DNA of 64,000 nt from Escherichia coli (GCF_041248615.1 NZ_CP158426.1); one strand, 5' to 3'; shown: positions 1-8,416, counted from the first letter of the stretch. Numbers and translations are program-made. The notes: generated by a model from the letters alone, not told the origin.

Positions 1-77
1 GCATGGCTATGGATTGATAAATGATATCAAAACGTATCAGCTAGTTTCCACGGTTAGAGAAGATGGCTATTATACTT

Positions 78-107
78 CAGAAACGGAACAACAGCGTTCC
101 GTTTCTG
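78..107. repeat. Perfect 12-bp inverted repeat with 6-nt loop (CAGAAACGGAAC-N6-GTTCCGTTTCTG)
   Basis: Read directly from sequence; lies upstream of the first operon; no clear T-run so not a classical terminator. Confidence 0.5.
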
Positions 108-389
108 ACGGACTGATTCTTCCGTAAATTCAGGTGTAAATCGTGGTGTGCCCATACGCTCCTCCTATGCTCAAACTATAGGGCAGGATCGTCTACCGGG
201 GTGGGGTCAGTCCACCAATGACTGAGAGGTGTCTGTTAAACCCGTGGCGATTCAGACATTACTCTTCCTATGTACACTGGAGTAGATTGAATAATCATAT
301 AATAATCAATCGGTTGAAATCATTTAGGGCTTTTGTATTAATAGTATTGAGATGGTTTGGTCATGGTTCCAGTTCATAAGGAAATAGTT

Positions 390-1442
390 ATGGGAATTAG
401 TGTTCGAGTCTTGCAAGCAAATCATGGTGATTGTTTCTTAGTTAGTTATAAGAGCTCAGATAGTGTTTACAACTTGCTAATTGATGGTGGTAATAGCGCC
501 ACATTTATGTTTGGGGCTCAAGGGCGCTACAGTGGTGAGCTTAAATGTGTACTCGATGATTTGAAAAAAGAAGGTCAGAAAATTGACTTGGTTATCTTAA
601 CCCATATAGATGATGATCATATCGGTGGTTTGCTTAGGGCTTTTGAAACACCAGGTTATCTATGCCAAATGGCTTCTTCTATCTGGTTTAATTCTTCAAG
701 ATTTATCACCAAACATTTTAAGGTTGATGAAATTTCAGACAATGATGTCTGTCTTCAAAGTAACTCAACGCAGACAAGTGCTAGGCAAGGGAAGAAACTG
801 GAAAACTTACTTGATGAAATCAATTGCGAACGGCAACCCATAGTTATTGCGGGGCAGAAGTTTACAAGGGGTCCGTTCACATTCACGATCTTATCCCCTG
901 AAGAAGATAATCTACGTAGCCTTCTTCATAAGTGGCCAGATGAGCCAGATCCGGTTACGACATCCGGTGCTTCAAGGGATTATGGAATGAAATTTGAGGA
1001 TATTTTGTCTAATGATAAATTCCAGAGTGATCAATCTGTTTATAATGGTAGCTCAATTGCTTTCATCCTTGAAGCTGATGGTAAGGCTATGCTCTTTTTG
1101 GGCGATTCACATGATGAAAATATTGTCCGTAATTTACGATCTCTTGGTTTTAATGAAGGTAACAAGCTCAAACTCGACCTCGTGAAAATTTCTCATCATG
1201 GTAGCCAGTATAATACTAGCCCTGAATTTTTGTCGCTCATAGATGCGCAAAACTTCATTATATCCACTAATGGGAGTAAGCACGGACTTCCTGATAAGAG
1301 AACTATTGCACGGATTTTATCTTCAGGAGAAGGCAAAATCGGCTTCAATTATTCGCACATTATCCAGGAGATGCTTCACGAAAATGAGGTTCCATTGTAC
1401 TCTTCTCGCCTGGTAGCATTAAATGGAGAAATTAGGCTATAA
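390..1442 (+). CDS. Metallo-beta-lactamase-fold hydrolase (ComEC/Rec2-like MBL family)
   Basis: ORF track 357..1442; ATG at 390 preceded by AGGAAA; motifs LVILTHIDDDHIGG (variant of HxHxDH) and KISHHGSQYNTS typical of MBL-fold enzymes; AT-rich. Confidence 0.7.
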   Translation: MGISVRVLQANHGDCFLVSYKSSDSVYNLLIDGGNSATFMFGAQGRYSGELKCVLDDLKKEGQKIDLVILTHIDDDHIGGLLRAFETPGYLCQMASSIWFNSSRFITKHFKVDEISDNDVCLQSNSTQTSARQGKKLENLLDEINCERQPIVIAGQKFTRGPFTFTILSPEEDNLRSLLHKWPDEPDPVTTSGASRDYGMKFEDILSNDKFQSDQSVYNGSSIAFILEADGKAMLFLGDSHDENIVRNLRSLGFNEGNKLKLDLVKISHHGSQYNTSPEFLSLIDAQNFIISTNGSKHGLPDKRTIARILSSGEGKIGFNYSHIIQEMLHENEVPLYSSRLVALNGEIRL

Positions 1443-1443
1443 A

Positions 1444-2727
1444 ATGACCGCTTCAAATTTGATGGCTTCTAACGCAGTGATCGTGAACGAGGGCAGTGGT
1501 GTTCTTGTTAATGCGATGACTCAAGATTATTCATACGTACTCACAGCAAAACATGTGTTAGCGAAATCAGGTAGTCAAAATATCGTTACTAATCAATATG
1601 GTAACAGTCTTAGAGTGCTTGATGTATTGGTGGGTCAGGAAGAGCATTGCGACTGTGCTGTAATCAAAATTGAATATGTACCAACTGTTGCTCAGCAGTC
1701 CTTCCCTGCAATAGCATTACCCAATTCGGCTTTGCTAAAGTTTGTTGGTTTTCCGGGAACCGAGAGACTAAGCGCTACCCCGCTGAAAATCTATGATGGG
1801 CATGTAACAGATGTAAGGGAGGGGCTGATTAGCTTCACGATAGAAGGCAGTCCCTCAAAAACCGCAATCGATGGAATGTCTGGCGGTGGAATGTATTACA
1901 TAGTTAATGAACATCCCCTCCTTGTTGGTGTAGAATTTGGGATGGACAGTATTCGTCAAGATCTACAATATGGACGTATACAATGTAAAAGTTTAATTGT
2001 TTTTGAAGAGATAATTAATTTAAACAGTGCTGCTCCAATGGTTCCCGCTTATTTGGAGTGTTTTTCACGCTTAAAAGAATATATCTTCGATTTTAATGTT
2101 GTTGATAAAAATAGAGTTCTGAATCTGAAAAACGCATTAAATATTTTTGCAGATGAACTTATAGACAAAGGTATGCCACCACCATTTGAATTAATGTCCA
2201 AATACAAAACTGATTTGTTAGTAGGTCCATATCAAGTTGACGATGTTAAAAATAAAGAATTATGGGTTGCATATTTTGAATTTCTGATAATTTGCGCAAT
2301 TCTTGATAATGTAAGTATTGCCAATAGTTCTTATATAGAAAGTTTAGAGCGGCGTAGGAGAATTCTTTATACTCCGGATGGAAGTAATTGGGTCGGAAAG
2401 CTTGATGTAATCTTAAAAGTTGCTCGAAAGTTATTAGATAAAGATGGCATAGTAATTGTGGCATCTCCAGAAAATGGAGCCGAATTATTACCGGATGATT
2501 TTGAAGTCGATAGGGTTATAAGGAATATTGCGCGAATCGCTAATTCAGGTCCACTTGCTCCTATCGATCAAGTTGAAAAAGAGATGTATAAGAGTTTTGT
2601 ATTAACGCATCTTGAAGGGCTGAGAAAAAAATGTGTTATAAACAAAGAGAGAATGTATGCAGAAGTTGAAGCTGGCTTAGACCAACTTCAGACGTTTAAG
2701 GAAAGCTTTAATGAATTTATTAAATAA
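1444..2727 (+). CDS. Trypsin-like serine peptidase with uncharacterised C-terminal domain
   Basis: ORF track 1423..2727; ATG at 1444 directly after upstream stop (TAA 1440-1442); candidate triad His (LTAKHV), Asp (CDCAVIKI), Ser (GMSGGGMYY); about 240 aa C-terminal extension of unknown fold. Confidence 0.7.
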   Translation: MTASNLMASNAVIVNEGSGVLVNAMTQDYSYVLTAKHVLAKSGSQNIVTNQYGNSLRVLDVLVGQEEHCDCAVIKIEYVPTVAQQSFPAIALPNSALLKFVGFPGTERLSATPLKIYDGHVTDVREGLISFTIEGSPSKTAIDGMSGGGMYYIVNEHPLLVGVEFGMDSIRQDLQYGRIQCKSLIVFEEIINLNSAAPMVPAYLECFSRLKEYIFDFNVVDKNRVLNLKNALNIFADELIDKGMPPPFELMSKYKTDLLVGPYQVDDVKNKELWVAYFEFLIICAILDNVSIANSSYIESLERRRRILYTPDGSNWVGKLDVILKVARKLLDKDGIVIVASPENGAELLPDDFEVDRVIRNIARIANSGPLAPIDQVEKEMYKSFVLTHLEGLRKKCVINKERMYAEVEAGLDQLQTFKESFNEFIK

Positions 2728-3262
2728 AGAATTTGATTTGGAATTTCTTAAATCTAGATTTTCTGATGCAGATTTCTATTTTTTTGTTTCTAATGATGAC
2801 TCATCTTATATTTCATGCGTAGCATGCTATTGTGAGAGCGCTAATTACGTGGTTGCGAATTGGACAGCGATTCAGAATTATTTATCTGCTTACTACCAAC
2901 CGAAGGATGAATTAGCTCTTTGGAATATATATTTAGTTTTCTTTTGTTCCGAAAAATTACCGATTTGGGATAAGTACCTTATAGATAATGATAAGTATTC
3001 TGTCAGAAAATTAATTATTGACGGGTTAACTACTCTGCCAAGTATTTCCGAAACTGTAACTTTTCTGAACAATCATCTGCTAGGCGCAGACCTAGAATTA
3101 ACTGAAATAGAGGAGAAGAAGGAGATAGAGTTATCATTAATTGAGTATATAAGTGGAACTCCTTTAGATTCAAAGGTTGAGTCGAGAGATGAGCGTATGA
3201 GCAGAATTGATAAAATTATTAATCTAGTGAGTTCAAATAAAAATGAAAATAAAAAAAGTTGA
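2711..3262 (+). CDS. Hypothetical protein, 183 aa, middle gene of candidate operon
   Basis: ORF overlaps upstream gene by 17 nt and downstream gene by 20 nt (translational coupling); no recognisable motif. Confidence 0.5.
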   Translation: MNLLNKEFDLEFLKSRFSDADFYFFVSNDDSSYISCVACYCESANYVVANWTAIQNYLSAYYQPKDELALWNIYLVFFCSEKLPIWDKYLIDNDKYSVRKLIIDGLTTLPSISETVTFLNNHLLGADLELTEIEEKKEIELSLIEYISGTPLDSKVESRDERMSRIDKIINLVSSNKNENKKS

Positions 3263-6200
3263 AATAGAAGGCTTTCGAGCATACAGATTCAAGGAAGATG
3301 GTACTTTCGATTTTACAAATAAAGATGATACGCCATCCAATTTTGTAGCGATCTATGCACCCAATGGCTTTGGAAAAAGTTCATTCTATGATGCGGTTGA
3401 ATGGGCTATTACTCATAATTTAGATAGATTTGCGGGTGAATATAATAAAAAAAATTATGAGCAAGCTGCCAGGAGCACGAAAGAGGACGGTGTTGCACAA
3501 AAAATACTACGTAATAAAGATGTACCAGACAATATTCCTACTCGTGTAACAGTTTTCACTACTTTACCAACTCCATTCGAACAAAGTTTAGGAACAGTTC
3601 GTTCTGATTCTAGAGATATAAGAATCGGCGAGAATAAAAATAAAATCAATGGCTATTTTAGAAAAGTGGTTCTTAGTCAAGATGAAATAGACCGTTTTTT
3701 AAAAGAAGCAAAGCCGCAAGATCGTTATAAGATGTTTATGGAGAGTTTTGGAGGTGAATGGGAAAAGGCGAGACAAGAGCTAACTATACTATTGAATGAC
3801 AATAAGGCGGTTTTGTTAAATCTCGAAAAAAACAAAAATGAACTTCAGGAACAACTAGATCAGCCTGTTGATGCGTCAACATTCATACAATTTAATAAAA
3901 TAGCATCTGAACTTGTAGCAGAAGGTGAAAGTTTACCATTAGTAGATGAAACAACTATAGTTAATACACAGCATGAGCTTTTGGAAAAAATAATCACAAG
4001 AAGTCACGAAATAAATTTTTCCTTAAACAAGAAAAAAATATTGAGAGATTCGATTTCTGAGTATATTTTAAAATTTCCTGATATCAGTTTTCGTACAACC
4101 CAGATTATCGAGAAAAAGAATAGACTAGAAAAAATAAATAAAGGGATAGAAGATGTCGGTCGTTATAAGACATTTCAGTCTACTCTTGAAAAACTGACTA
4201 TCGAAAAGAAAAAGATAAGTCAGAGCTTAAATTTTATAGAAGAATTAGATGGTTTATCCCAAGAGTTTTTAAGCTTGGAATTTAACTTGGAATCAGCTCG
4301 AAAGAAACATAGAGAGATTTCATATAATTATGAAAATGAAAAAACTCTCCTTGATAATTTATTCCAAACAAGAAACCAAAATGATGCTGATTTATCTTCA
4401 ATTGACAAGCGATGCTTATCTATACGTTCTACGTTAGAAAACGCTACGGTTACTTATTCTAATATATCTAATATACAAAATAAAATTTTAAATATAGTTT
4501 CTACGCAAACAGAATTAGAGCACAAACTTAATCAAGTTAGATCCGAATACCAAAAAAACAAATCCGAATTAAACAAAGTATCAGATTTAACAATAACCGC
4601 CAAATCATTACTTTCATCAGACTTAAGTCTAATTGATTTATCTTCAGATTTATTAAAAGAACTAAACAACTTATCGCAAGAACTAAATATATTGGTCCTA
4701 CATGATCAATCAATTCATAACACACAAGAATCTCTTTCTGCACAAATGGGAGTTCACGAACGTCTAATTGCATCGGGCCTTGAGTACTTAAGTTTATGGC
4801 CGACTAATATATGTCCTTTATGTCACAAGCCGCATGACTCTGAGTCCTCTCTTAGAGAACAAGTAACAAATACTGACGTAATATCCATGCTTAGTAAAGA
4901 GAATGCAGCTAAGCTCGAGATATCCTCAAAACGGCGGTCAGAGTTAAATGGCAAGATAGAATCCATCGTACAGAAAGCCCTTGAAATTAAAATGAGTAAA
5001 CTTGAGGTATTAAGTAAAAAGGTCAATCAACAAGGAAATGAGATACATCGAGAAGAACAGCACTATACAGCTCTTTTAGCAGAAAAACAGTCTGTCCAAA
5101 ATCAGTTAAACGAGTTGCAGAAGGCTGTAGCTGGACTAACTAAAGATGAATTATTAGCTCGCTTAGATGCTGAACTTAAAGAATTAGAGGCCAAGAAAAA
5201 TGAAGTGATAAAAAACAAGCTGACCTTGACGAAAAATATTAACGTTAAAAGAACGTTGATTACAGAGTTAAGTGGGGCGATCAATTTACTTAATACGCAA
5301 ATTCATGAAATGATGTCATCATCTAACTATTTAAAAACAAAAGCTTACTCTGAAGAAAATGGCTTGTCATCGGAGTTTTTGAAAGAACATTATGATGATA
5401 AACGCCATTTTTACCTTAAAAATATAAATGGACTCAATTTTGAGATTAATAATATTACCAGCCAATTAAATGATCTTCAGAAAGCTATGATAGCCGATGA
5501 AATGTGGCTGGATTATGAAGAAATGATTTCTGAAAAAGAGAATTTCGAGGATTATATTTCTAAATCAGAAGCGGTTTTACAATCTTATTCATCATTATTA
5601 AAGCAGCATTTTGAACTACCAAAATATGAATCTTTAGTTGAATTGAAAGATTTCCTGATAAGCTCACTTGATAAAGAAACTAGGCTTTATAATGGTCTAG
5701 AGGAACGGCTTGGAAAATATAATTTATTATCAGAACTTTTGAAAACAGCAGAGTCGTTTGTAAAAAGTATTAAGTTGCAGAATGATATTAATGAAACCTT
5801 AGGTCTTATAGAAATAAGAAAAGAAGTTGATTTAGCTCTGACTAAGGAACGAAATCAAGTAATAGAGGAACTTAGAAACTTGATAAAATCTTTCTTTTAT
5901 GAGGAACTCATTAATTCTATTTATAAGAGAATAGATCCACATCCATCACTTAAGAAAGTGGTGTTTCGCCCAGATTTTGACTCATCAGATAAACCTGGTC
6001 TTAATATAGTTGTCAGTGATGAAAAAGGTGATATGGTATCTCCAATATTATTCTTTAGTGCAGCGCAATTAAATATTCTAAGCCTTAGTGTCTTTTTAGC
6101 AAGTGCTTTGCATGCAAAAGATGATAATGGAAATGTAATTGATGTGATTATGATTGATGATCCAATTCAATCAATGGATTCAATTAATATCCTATCCACA

Positions 6201-6380
6201 ATTGATCTTCTTAGAAGTATTACCGTTAGATTCAACAAACAAATAATAATATCAACACATGACGACAATTTCTTTGGCTTGCTCCAACGTAAAATCCCTT
6301 CGGAAATATTGGGTGCCAAGTTTCTTAAATTGGAGAAATTTGGGGTTGTAGTGCCTGTTGATGATTTAAATAATACATGA
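3243..6380 (+). CDS. SMC/Rad50/RecF-like ABC ATPase with long coiled coil and central CxxC motif
   Basis: N-terminal Walker A YAPNGFGKSSFYDAVEWAI; long K/E/L/Q-rich coiled-coil middle; CPLCHKP near centre; C-terminal signature-like FSAAQLNILSLS, Walker B VIMIDDP, His-switch ISTHD. Confidence 0.8.
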   Translation: MKIKKVEIEGFRAYRFKEDGTFDFTNKDDTPSNFVAIYAPNGFGKSSFYDAVEWAITHNLDRFAGEYNKKNYEQAARSTKEDGVAQKILRNKDVPDNIPTRVTVFTTLPTPFEQSLGTVRSDSRDIRIGENKNKINGYFRKVVLSQDEIDRFLKEAKPQDRYKMFMESFGGEWEKARQELTILLNDNKAVLLNLEKNKNELQEQLDQPVDASTFIQFNKIASELVAEGESLPLVDETTIVNTQHELLEKIITRSHEINFSLNKKKILRDSISEYILKFPDISFRTTQIIEKKNRLEKINKGIEDVGRYKTFQSTLEKLTIEKKKISQSLNFIEELDGLSQEFLSLEFNLESARKKHREISYNYENEKTLLDNLFQTRNQNDADLSSIDKRCLSIRSTLENATVTYSNISNIQNKILNIVSTQTELEHKLNQVRSEYQKNKSELNKVSDLTITAKSLLSSDLSLIDLSSDLLKELNNLSQELNILVLHDQSIHNTQESLSAQMGVHERLIASGLEYLSLWPTNICPLCHKPHDSESSLREQVTNTDVISMLSKENAAKLEISSKRRSELNGKIESIVQKALEIKMSKLEVLSKKVNQQGNEIHREEQHYTALLAEKQSVQNQLNELQKAVAGLTKDELLARLDAELKELEAKKNEVIKNKLTLTKNINVKRTLITELSGAINLLNTQIHEMMSSSNYLKTKAYSEENGLSSEFLKEHYDDKRHFYLKNINGLNFEINNITSQLNDLQKAMIADEMWLDYEEMISEKENFEDYISKSEAVLQSYSSLLKQHFELPKYESLVELKDFLISSLDKETRLYNGLEERLGKYNLLSELLKTAESFVKSIKLQNDINETLGLIEIRKEVDLALTKERNQVIEELRNLIKSFFYEELINSIYKRIDPHPSLKKVVFRPDFDSSDKPGLNIVVSDEKGDMVSPILFFSAAQLNILSLSVFLASALHAKDDNGNVIDVIMIDDPIQSMDSINILSTIDLLRSITVRFNKQIIISTHDDNFFGLLQRKIPSEILGAKFLKLEKFGVVVPVDDLNNT

Positions 6381-6406
6381 TTTATTTAGTGTGTTAACCA
6401 TAAAAT

Positions 6407-6440
6407 AAGAACTGGGCCAGTGACGACCCAGTTCTTATTT
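6407..6440 (+). terminator. Hairpin terminator after ATPase gene
   Basis: AAGAACTGGG-N10-CCCAGTTCTT followed by ATTT, 27 nt after stop at 6380. Confidence 0.5.
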
Positions 6441-7696
6441 ATAGGGGAACCTATTTTTATCGCAATAAATTAAGAGCGAAGATATGGTGAAAATTGTTAA
6501 AATATGAATTTTTTTAATTTTTTATCTAAAGCCCCTGTTTTCATTATCGTATAAATCAATCTGGACGATTTGTTCTTCAGGTGCAAGGGTATCCGCAAAC
6601 TAGCGCAGGCTATCACCGCCTATAAGCTCCAGAATATGATCAAGTCCATGCCCTCCTGACAACCCAATCGCCTGTAATGACCATTCAGGAATGATTTGCT
6701 CTTTTGATGACTCAACCACAAATGTATCGAGCTCAGTCTTTGCTTAGAGCAGAATTTGAGCCCAAGACTTCCACTCGTATCATCGTAGGTCAGCGTTTCT
6801 CAGAAAATAACCCATGTAACCACGGCATCCGTCTCCGAATGTTATCCTAGAAACAATATTGAGGGGGGAATGTAGAATCATAACCTCTGAATTAACGTAG
6901 ATTAAATCATTCGATCTAAATCAGAGCATTCATAGTGATGGTACACTCAGCACCAGACAAAGATCTCTAGGGGTTTGTTCTAATAAACATGGCCCTCATT
7001 CCTTCTGGTGAAATTCGGAATCTGATTGCGTAGGATAATTACATCCAGGAATCGGGCTAGCATTACAGCCCCCTAAGGGTGTTGTTTGCAACGGTTCATG
7101 TTTGTCTGAGTAACTATATTCCTGAATGTGTTGCTCCGAATTTACGGATTGCCTTGCAGAAAAGGGCTGTTCTGGCGTTGTGCTTTGAAAGGCGTACACC
7201 TGAGGAGCACAGAGCCACAGGAAGGGCAGTAGGGTGCAGCGGGCGAGTACATTCATATATTCTCCAGACAGAATTCATACCAATTATATGATATGCCAGA
7301 TTGACTCAATAAAGCGTTAACGAAGAACGAAAATATAAGACCAGGTATAGAACTCGACATGCCGATAGTCGCCGGGAAATATCGTGGCCAGATTTTTTGT
7401 TAATGCTCATAGTCAGGCAACAAGGGTCGCTGCAGTAATGACTTCTGAACCTTATAACAAATTTCGGCACGACACTTTTATCATCTTTTTCATAATAAAA
7501 CCTCCGTTTTTGTTTTAATCGTCCTCCGGATGTTTCGGACATTGGATGCCCGTAACATCCGGAGGCTGCGGGTGCGGGCGGCAAAGAGCCCGTGAAGATG
7601 CCCGGAATGAATGGCAAACCCCCTCAGGAATGAAGAAAATACGCAATCAATGCTGGGGTGCTTTGTTGATCACTTTTACTGAAGTACTTTTCTATC

Positions 7697-8416
7697 TCAG
7701 AAGTAGGTTGTCCAGAAAGAGGAAACTGGCATCGCCAGTACCAATGCAGGAAGCATACTGGCTACCGGGAAGACCTTGATACCGGAAATACGCAGGCCGG
7801 TCGCCACCATTAGAACGCCACCCACAGCTGAAAAGTCGGCCTGCATGGCAGGCGTGGTCAGGGGCAATATATATATCGCGCTGTAGGCGAGTGCTAACTG
7901 AATGATAAGCTGGGGGAAAGCGACTAATGCCACGGCGTAACCCAGGGTTGTGGCAAAAATGAGGGCGGTCAGCAAATCCAGGAACGCTTTCGCGATAAGG
8001 ATACTCGAGTCCCCGGTCATGCCTTCGTGCATCGCACCAAAAATACCGGTGCCACTGGCACAAAAAAGGACGATGATCGCCACATAGTTTTGTAAAAACT
8101 GCGCCTGTGAGTCTTTGTCTCCGGGATCGCTTTTCACGACGAGCTCCACCAACCCACGGGCTTGTCCGCCCAGGTGGCTTATCCCTTTTTCCAGATAGCA
8201 GAGCTCGCCCACCAGTGTGCCGAGAAGGACCGATAGAACCATGACGGGCATATGGCTGACACTTGTCACAAGGACGATCCCCATACACAGGGAGGCAGCA
8301 CCAAAAATGAGCGGCATTGAGGTACGTAACCTTTCAGGTAGACGTGAGCTAATGATGGCTCCTGCCATCCCGCCGATCACGACGGCAGAGCCGTTGAACC
8401 ATGGGCCTGTAATCAT
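7697..8416 (-). CDS. DUF554 family inner-membrane protein (YqgA-like)
   Basis: Hydrophobic 239-aa ORF; recalled similarity to E. coli YqgA including NYVAIIVLFCASGTGIFG and ILPLTTP; overlaps UbiX-like stop by 4 nt. Confidence 0.7.
   Translation of the reverse strand: MITGPWFNGSAVVIGGMAGAIISSRLPERLRTSMPLIFGAASLCMGIVLVTSVSHMPVMVLSVLLGTLVGELCYLEKGISHLGGQARGLVELVVKSDPGDKDSQAQFLQNYVAIIVLFCASGTGIFGAMHEGMTGDSSILIAKAFLDLLTALIFATTLGYAVALVAFPQLIIQLALAYSAIYILPLTTPAMQADFSAVGGVLMVATGLRISGIKVFPVASMLPALVLAMPVSSFWTTYF

Follow-up and report, generated by a model that had tools for sequence, protein, structure and literature searches.

A spacer between an ABC-3C defence operon and a UbiD cluster in Escherichia coli: a probable recombination scar that retains a small gene

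We analyzed the spacer that separates an ABC-three-component (ABC-3C) defence operon from a LysR-UbiD-UbiX-DUF554 cluster in a 64,000-nt stretch of Escherichia coli DNA, which is referred to here as the window. The spacer is probably a layered recombination scar at the boundary between this metabolic cargo cluster and an ICE-associated defence hotspot, and it probably contains one live gene, which occupies about 20% of its length and is predicted to encode a small exported protein of 86 residues. A preliminary description had presented the spacer as decayed. This stands for two gene relics that carry in-frame stops, but a uniformly decayed spacer is contradicted by the 86-codon ORF, which is intact and conserved.

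We reconstruct the following history. The ancestral gene order, UbiD-UbiX-DUF554-sulfatase-maturase-small gene, survives in metagenomic relatives. A single deletion of about 3.1 kb removed the body of the sulfatase gene and the maturase gene; what stayed behind is the leader of the sulfatase gene, including hairpins and a ribosome-binding site, and 37 codons that have been decaying. Past the 3' block of the small gene, different lineages carry different defence cassettes, and the ORF stayed open, under purifying selection, throughout.

Setting and composition of the spacer

The window is identical (100%) to the chromosome of E. coli NRZ14408, and the stretch is present in five of 5,426 complete E. 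coli genomes. RefSeq/PGAP has no gene annotated in the spacer in any of these five. The left neighbour is the AAA ATPase gene of the ABC-3C operon (plus strand, stop at 6380), and the right neighbour is the DUF554 gene (minus strand, stop at 7697), which ends the LysR/UbiD/UbiX/DUF554 cluster. The wider island adjoins amn/shiA. An integrase fragment and IS3 are found in it, as are MobC, ArdC, VirB11 and a type IV coupling protein, so that the previously proposed assignment to an ICE variable region is reasonable. The GC content is 0.31-0.33 left of 6450, then 0.38-0.47, and reaches at least 0.50 right of 7500; this stepwise increase fits a junction of segments with different origin. The features are listed in Table 1.

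Table 1. Features of the spacer, in window coordinates.
Feature	Position	Strand	Remarks
3' flank travelling with the ABC-3C cassette	6381-6587	+	shared with E. coli O15:H12
Relic of an MDR-type NAD(P)-dependent alcohol dehydrogenase (ADH)	6558-6698	-	47 codons; in-frame stop at 6602-6600
Filler	6699-6796		stop-broken frame continues through
Block travelling with the small gene	6797-6995	-	about 200 bp; shared with loci carrying other cargo
Intact gene for a small protein of 86 aa, predicted to be exported	6996-7256	-	homologues, selection tests, distant relatives
5' region of the small gene	7257-7320	-	Shine-Dalgarno and -10 hexamer read from the sequence
Deletion junction	7373-7383		join placed by three-way alignment (about 7378)
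Relic of the 5' end of a Tat-signal sulfatase gene	7383-7493	-	37 codons; three in-frame stops
Former DUF554-sulfatase intergenic leader	7494-7696	-	one small and one long hairpin

The absence of a long intact ORF from these 1.2 kb, as described before, was verified: the longest ORFs between 6380 and 7697 have 103, 86, 77 and 70 codons. The 103-aa ORF (7306-7617, minus strand, TTG start) was rejected as a gene; it overlaps both the sulfatase relic and the hairpin, and in the related locus A38 it is split into pieces of 60 and 34 aa. Scans of the spacer gave no excess of promoters (five calls versus 4.0 expected from shuffles) or terminators (two calls versus 1.6). Searches against Rfam at permissive E-values resulted only in sub-threshold miRNA and Bacillus sRNA noise, with best scores of 29.8, 21.7 and 19.8 bits against gathering thresholds of 60, 90 and 49 bits, respectively, for families that are implausible here.

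The left end of the spacer belongs to the defence cassette. Positions 6200-6587 are 83% identical to E. coli O15:H12, and the homology ends at 6587. In that strain, this ABC-3C cassette has unrelated DUF4150/DUF2169 genes behind it. The presence of the same flank in another right-hand context indicates that the cassette brings its own 3' flank of about 200 bp. A hairpin at about 6403-6441, just past the stop codon of the AAA ATPase gene (-20.2 kcal/mol, z = -6.7), is likely a terminator.

The end of the cassette (about 6587) directly abuts the fragment of the ADH gene. In line with the earlier remark that the minus strand is protein-like here but broken by stops, six-frame translation showed one unbroken frame from 6899 to about 6527 that contains three in-frame stops and no frameshift. 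Within it, codons 6698-6558 match residues 218-264 (approximately) of the 342 residues of an annotated NAD(P)-dependent ADH encoded by the Klebsiella IncFIB plasmid NZ_CP099749, with 61.7% identity over 47 aa (E 3e-10, tblastn against all plasmids; pairwise E 1.2e-14) and 77% DNA identity over positions 6580-6689. The segment has no Pfam domain and its best NCBIfam match has an E-value of 0.18; this lack of a domain match indicates that only a fragment is left. With no intact, model-detectable reading frame, the segment reads as a relic. No ADH homology was detectable outside 6558-6698, though the frame runs on to 6899, and the filler has no detectable homologue and is common to none of the fetched loci. 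On the Klebsiella plasmid, the ADH gene adjoins a LysR gene and a gene for a zincin-like metallopeptidase domain, which we read as ArdC-like. This ArdC-like/LysR/cargo layout parallels the ArdC-LysR-UbiD layout of the window, which differs from the plasmid in that it retains only about 140 bp of the ADH gene, with an in-frame stop and no match to a domain model.

The small gene and its selective maintenance

The protein deduced from the 86-codon ORF starts with MNVLARCTLLPFLWLCAPQVYA, followed by FQ. As the preliminary description had noted, its N-terminus resembles a signal peptide: a positive n-region (MNVLAR) and a hydrophobic core (CTLLPFLWLCA) precede PQVYA/FQ, in which the slash marks the predicted cleavage site. 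The V-Y-A motif aligns with the textbook ALA/FQ of distant relatives, and the A-x-A/F-Q position is invariant or nearly so across relatives with 27-93% identity. By inspection and alignment, the protein thus has the features of a substrate of Sec and SPase I. One member of a 90% cluster is labelled 'Lipoprotein', and we rejected this assignment: the only candidate lipobox is L-W-L-C, which has Leu at position -1, and several distant relatives lack any Cys at that site.

A Shine-Dalgarno sequence (GGAG, 7265-7262) precedes the ATG by 5 nt. Further upstream lies TATAAT (7288-7283), a perfect -10 hexamer, which is preceded by TTGAGT, 15 nt upstream. We infer that TATAAT belongs to the promoter of the small gene; the promoter scan made no call here because the 15-nt spacing is not optimal. 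The 5' region is 75-97% identical in the E. coli-type loci and can still be aligned with the metagenomic locus L003, in which the -10 hexamer is absent. On the other side of the gene, the block at 6797-6995 accompanies it in four other lineages; identity is 76-81% to L007, L011 and L012, in which the cargo beyond the block differs. The block contains a weak terminator-like site (6825-6812, terminator scan) and shows neither excess folding (z = -0.14 and -0.97) nor an Rfam match; it is probably the 3' untranslated region of the small gene. The gene would be transcribed from its own promoter and translated from GGAG, and its product would be exported by Sec. Cleavage after VYA would release an acidic protein of about 64 aa that contains the CNASPIPGC loop, presumably closed by a Cys64-Cys72 disulphide, and that may act in the periplasm or outside the cell.

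Comparison of related loci points to a real protein-coding gene under purifying selection. The ORF has homologues in eight protein clusters (75-97% identity) and is intact in six divergent nucleotide lineages, with 85-86 codons and without internal indels, in a set of loci that was found through protein searches and is hence biased to intact copies. Pairwise dN/dS values are 0.25-0.59. The pooled pN/pS is 0.40 in frame versus 1.11, 0.90, 1.00 and 0.95 in four of the five control frames; the fifth, which is the antisense phase-mirror, gave 0.47, as expected, and contains six stops. Fisher tests resulted in p = 0.0004-0.002 for three pairs of sequences and p = 0.096 for a fourth. In a neutral simulation that assumes a star phylogeny and uniform mutation, all five lineages were open in 3 of 2000 runs, and the observed pN/pS was reached in none of the 2000. 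Variable sites number 21 to 24 at codon positions 1 and 2 versus 36 at position 3 (chi-square p = 0.10). Purifying selection on the ORF is only moderate.

If the whole spacer were non-functional, the ORF would be an open frame that has by chance not yet been hit. The blank PGAP annotation and the lack of a match in any family library agree with such a view, as do two observations on the DNA: among the E. coli-type loci the identity of the ORF is not above that of the non-coding flanks, and frameshifted variants occur, since the clusters P0006 and P0008, both from contigs of about 1 kb, have a -1 frameshift in a G5 run. We nevertheless regard a chance ORF as very unlikely. The reduction of pN/pS is specific to the frame, with values of about 1 in four of the five control frames, and neutral simulations seldom kept all lineages open. 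Moreover, the 37-codon sulfatase relic next door, which serves as an internal negative control, has been hit by three to four stops or a frameshift in each of the five E. coli-type loci where it is still present, and relatives of the small protein at 27-29% identity keep its length, signal peptide and Cys loop.

These relatives come from an exhaustive profile search with the 86-aa family over 1.84 billion representatives, which found only seven proteins. Four of the seven are distant relatives (27-29% identity, 82-104 aa) that keep the signal peptide, A-x-A/FQ, the E..I..YS motif and the LGxCxAxP[IV]PGC loop. The 90% clusters comprise more than 80 sequences; the cluster members are almost all 85-87 aa long, derive from E. 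coli, Kosakonia, Serratia, Klebsiella and Enterobacter, and, apart from the case mentioned above, bear the label 'hypothetical protein'. Such clusters of 81-86 aa in Klebsiella, Enterobacter, Serratia and Kosakonia share the Sec-type AxA/FQ, the E..I..YS motif and the loop with the protein of the window, whose subfamily has two cysteines versus four (C-x7-C-x-C-x2-C) in the Klebsiella/Enterobacter branch; their genomic contexts also differ, and no family model matches any of these relatives. Profile searches of the small protein and its relatives against Pfam, NCBIfam, PADLOC, PHROGs and PDB gave nothing credible. In about 100,000 species representatives, the close subfamily was found only in Citrobacter gillenii and Yersinia artesiana, and these two loci give limited comparative power. 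An AlphaFold2 model built with a 10-sequence alignment is uninformative (pLDDT 53, pTM 0.18). The protein belongs to an unnamed Enterobacterales family characterized by the AxA/FQ signal peptide and the LGxCxAxP[IV]PGC loop.

The genomic neighbourhood gives some indication of a role. In L003, the small gene follows a sulfatase/maturase pair. In three loci whose protein is 60% identical (L023-L025), it is the last gene of an operon that is divergent from LysR and encodes Amidohydro_2, a 120-aa lipoprotein and the small protein; its start is 18 nt beyond the end of the lipoprotein gene, and here too a sulfatase/maturase pair is adjacent to the operon. Recurrent neighbours are therefore LysR-controlled decarboxylase genes (UbiD/UbiX or Amidohydro_2), a lipoprotein gene and a sulfatase/maturase pair, and they suggest an accessory role in the envelope-side handling of sulfated or phenolic substrates. 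Such a role is a guess from guilt by association, and the link to sulfate or phenolic metabolism is weak because the distant relatives lie in unrelated genomic contexts. Conjugation and defence genes are not part of the recurrent company of the gene.

A bolder claim is that small exported proteins with a disulphide loop form a so far unrecognised family in Enterobacterales that has a real function in the envelope, and that the protein of the window is the first of them to be described. We consider this unlikely. One possibility under that claim is a periplasmic accessory or metal-binding partner of sulfatase/phenolic-acid decarboxylase clusters; the four-Cys Klebsiella branch adjoins a ZnuA-type transporter, which would fit a metal-binding role.

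The radical-SAM genes raise another possibility, namely that the small protein is a ribosomal peptide modified by the neighbouring radical-SAM/SPASM enzyme and that the deletion orphaned it here. Such a gene immediately precedes the small gene in L003 and is no more than 2.5 kb away from it in L023, and there is a weak match (E 0.058) to TIGR04118, a model for Cys-rich RiPPs modified by radical-SAM enzymes. That match scores 13.4 bits against a cut-off of 35, the enzyme passes the equivalog cut-off for anaerobic sulfatase maturases and adjoins its sulfatase, and the protein has a Sec signal peptide. Moreover, only loci of the L003 and L023 types have a radical-SAM gene, there for an anaerobic sulfatase maturase; the window and most loci lack one, and in many of these the small gene is maintained under selection all the same. 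We rejected a RiPP precursor on these grounds and regard it as extremely improbable.

The sulfatase/maturase deletion and the adjoining leader

Pairs of genes for a sulfatase and an anaerobic sulfatase maturase are known, for example aslA-aslB or ydeN-ydeM of E. coli. To our knowledge, a gene for a small exported protein after such a pair has not been described as a feature of these operons. This arrangement is present in four metagenomic loci (L003-L006) that were reached through protein homologues of the 86-aa ORF. Their gene order is UbiD-UbiX-DUF554-sulfatase (633 aa)-radical SAM/SPASM (414 aa)-small ORF, after which come GFO_IDH_MocA, ldtA and amn. The sulfatase of L003 has a Tat signal, and its radical-SAM protein is an anaerobic sulfatase maturase according to TIGR03942, an NCBIfam equivalog model (497 bits versus a cut-off of 349).

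Alignment of the window with L003 revealed what is missing. Positions 8000-7615 are 96% identical to L003. Positions 7592-7384 are 75% identical to L003 positions 2583-2782, which comprise the DUF554-sulfatase intergenic region and the first 110 bp (approximately) of the sulfatase gene, and positions 7320-7002, upstream of and including the small ORF, are 81.5% identical to L003 positions 5937-6255. About 3.1 kb of L003, from approximately codon 38 of the sulfatase gene to just past the maturase gene, is therefore missing from the window. The junction is common to all E. coli-type loci and L009, which indicates one ancestral deletion. The 37-codon relic itself argues against L003 being derived by insertion.

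The translated search for truncated homologues thus found a second relic besides that of the ADH gene. Positions 7493-7383 read MKKMIKVSCRNLL-stop-GSEVITAATLVA-stop-L-stop-ALTKNLAT, and their counterpart in the L003 sulfatase is MKKTIKVSRRNFLLGSGAITAASLISSPKILAKNLTT. With tblastn, the L003 sulfatase (MKKTIKVSRRNFLLGSGAITAASL...) matches the window (MKKMIKVSCRNLL-stop-GSEVITAATL...) at 59% identity (E 0.001). The relic still has its ribosome-binding site, GGAGG at 7505-7501. Its twin-arginine motif is lost, SRRNFL having become SCRNLL followed by a stop, and an intact frame with the catalytic domain (PF00884) is not present in the window. Whereas L003 has the complete pair, all that the window has of it is the leader and a pseudogene remnant of 37 codons from the start of the sulfatase gene. 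Two stops are common to the five E. coli-type loci in which the relic is still present, and lineage-specific additional ones bring the number to three to four; in L012, a 1-nt deletion shifts the frame instead. The decay of the sulfatase gene is real.

Two hairpins lie in the leader between the relic and the DUF554 gene: a small one (7592-7575) and a long, near-perfect one whose arms are 7523-7542 and 7546-7565. The long hairpin has one copy per genome and, of 5426 genomes, is found only in the five that contain this locus, so that it is not a dispersed repeat of the REP/BIME type. One may ask whether it is the leader (7494-7600 on the minus strand) that gives the spacer a function, either as a cis-regulatory RNA or as the terminator of the UbiD-UbiX-DUF554 operon. 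The leader folds very stably (-45.1 kcal/mol, z = -5.2). Among the E. coli-type loci, identity is 94-100% for the hairpin versus 77-93% for the neighbouring blocks, and one of the hairpin variants replaces a G-C pair by G-U in the minus-strand RNA. Against this, two other variants break pairs, and the variants are too few to test covariation. A Rho-independent terminator at 7523-7565 has its stem, but no U-tract follows it on either strand (the sequence continues with ACGAUUAAAACAAAAA on the minus strand and CUGCGGGUGCGG on the plus strand), and the terminator scan made no call there. No Rfam family matches the leader at threshold, and L003, which has kept its sulfatase gene, has a shorter and partly different hairpin at the same place. 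We therefore consider a functional leader possible but rather doubtful, and an undescribed cis-regulatory RNA is a weaker alternative to a new protein family. Most likely, although we say so with low confidence, the leader is an orphaned cis element of the lost sulfatase gene; with equally low confidence, its present role may be to stabilise the DUF554 transcript at the 3' side.

Cargo exchange beside the small gene

The preliminary description regarded the spacer as a scar of module exchange. This is borne out by the two gene relics, by the ArdC, MobC, coupling-protein and VirB11 genes of the wider locus, and by related loci, in which five other cargo sets occupy the position next to the same small ORF. 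The ABC-3C operon of the window is replaced by a restriction endonuclease and an AAA ATPase in A38; by Gabija-like GajA/GajB and a Cap4-type nuclease in L007, L008, L011 and L018; by an MC3/LmuB_C set and KwaA/KwaB (Kiwa) in L012; by an nSTAND NTPase in L009; and by IS3, DUF6119 and IS1 in the Citrobacter gillenii locus (L017). The partners on the other side vary too: besides the UbiD cluster, there are an AAA_13 ATPase gene followed by ArdC (L009) and T4SS genes fused to a DUF554 tail (L011 and L018). On the cargo side, the breakpoints are nested, at 0-7, about 20, about 104, about 199 and at least 250 nt past the stop codon of the ORF. With six alternative neighbourhoods and the conjugation genes of the island, the spacer has what is expected of a boundary of a defence-cargo hotspot in a mobile island. 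A search for direct or inverted repeats that bound the ABC-3C cassette found only short chance pairs. The exchange looks like the outcome of repeated illegitimate or homologous recombination together with IS activity rather than of site-specific insertion.

The ORF is the one constant beside at least five cargo sets and three other-side partners, which might be taken to mean that the hotspot is functionally anchored by the ORF and its flanks, either as a site of recombination or attachment or as an element-encoded factor guiding the insertion of defence cassettes. The nested breakpoints do not define one site, however, the cassette is not flanked by repeats, and one of the junctions is a plain IS3 insertion. 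In addition, the gene also occurs in non-mobile metabolic contexts without defence genes, and a protein with a signal peptide is an unlikely recombination factor. We thus hold an anchor function to be highly improbable, and retain the reading of the spacer as a recombination scar with one live gene.

ICEs with diverse defence cargo at dedicated positions have already been described in E. coli (Hochhauser et al. 2023, PMC10121019). The locus analyzed here resembles the internal hotspots of ICEs and other mobile islands of E. coli in having conserved flanks beside interchangeable defence systems, in an island with a T4SS, MobC and ArdC near amn/shiA. It differs from them in that our analysis concerns the boundary of the hotspot, not its cargo, and in that the junctions are nested and irregular instead of lying at one fixed site.

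The spacer is an ordinary kind of feature that reveals no new mechanism, and the gain for annotation is modest. The main value of the analysis is a correction: a junk-like stretch that is blank in RefSeq appears to hold a selectively maintained gene for a small secreted protein, export being predicted. The unnamed family of small proteins to which it belongs is hereby flagged for annotation. The order of events can be read as the loss of the sulfatase/maturase pair followed by repeated swaps of defence cassettes, which makes the locus a worked example of the erosion of cargo boundaries in ICE-associated islands. Moreover, the ORF is a stable landmark with which this defence hotspot can be found in other genomes. 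Should the protein indeed represent a new family with a function in the envelope, the gene would have been kept on the ICE because it is useful by itself.

Annotation, reading frames and frameshifted copies of the small gene

The intact 86-aa gene of the spacer (window 6996-7256, minus strand), referred to here as the small gene, is left without annotation by RefSeq/PGAP in each of the five complete E. coli genomes with this locus, i.e., the one containing the window and four others in which the equivalent position was inspected (NZ_AP021893, NZ_AP027889, NZ_CP161809 and NZ_CP028738). Homologues are annotated as hypothetical proteins by other sources. The longest ORF of the spacer was rejected as spurious: its frame crosses the hairpin as well as the sulfatase relic, and its counterpart in E. 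coli strain A38 is broken into ORFs of 60 and 34 aa.

Two clusters of homologous proteins, P0006 and P0008, both derived from Logan contigs of about 1 kb, end in an alternative C-terminus, because the reading frame shifts by -1 in a GGGGG run (codons 62-63 of the small gene). Slippage, genuine inactivation or a mistake in assembly could each account for the shift.

Features of the spacer and of related loci
Feature	Location	Strand	Remarks
Longest spacer ORF	window 7306-7617	minus	103 aa, TTG start
120-aa protein gene	L023 6621-6983		directly upstream of the small gene, 18-nt gap
Small-gene relative	L027-L029 (Klebsiella) 6001-6255		four-Cys tail C-x7-C-x-C-x2-C
ComEC/Rec2 and ABC-3C cassette	L015 (E. 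coli O15:H12) 1938-8138		counterpart of window ~1-6587
'VirB3'/DUF554-tail fusion	L011/L018 (Yersinia artesiana) ~5489-5563		counterpart of window 7766-7697
Gene order	L014 (Klebsiella plasmid NZ_CP099749) 1-3962		zincin-like metallopeptidase-domain gene, LysR, alcohol dehydrogenase, PLP enzyme

Gene neighbourhoods of the relatives

In the 60%-identical relatives, an Amidohydro_2 gene precedes the gene for the 120-aa protein, which in L023 contains a classic lipobox (LLAGC) and received no family assignment. This protein may be a functional partner of the small gene.

The distant four-Cys relatives of Klebsiella are stand-alone genes. Their neighbours encode a metal transporter (ZnuA/ABC-3/ABC_tran) and PhoX, and they also adjoin paralogue-type genes (ThrRS-like, Amidohydro_1, ALAD and DAO). 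The neighbourhood looks like a metal-starvation island, which hints at metal binding by the four-Cys proteins.

Modules flanking the spacer in other elements

The ComEC/Rec2 and ABC-3C cassette was also found in five other E. coli genomes. Its 3' flank is 83% identical to L015 over window 6200-6587, and 74% identity was obtained for window 6454-6587 in a database search. To the right of the cassette, L015 carries DUF4150/DUF2169 genes (T6SS-associated) in place of the small gene and the UbiD cluster.

In L011 and L018, the ORF called 'VirB3' terminates within the homologue of the DUF554 3' end, and therefore a deletion joined T4SS genes (SLT, TrbC and VirB3) directly to the DUF554 tail, at a site upstream of the small gene.

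We read the zincin-like metallopeptidase-domain gene of the Klebsiella plasmid as ArdC-like, and the plasmid layout parallels the ArdC / LysR / UbiD-UbiX-DUF554 arrangement of the window. The position adjoining ArdC and LysR may be a recurrent slot for metabolic cargo in related conjugative elements.
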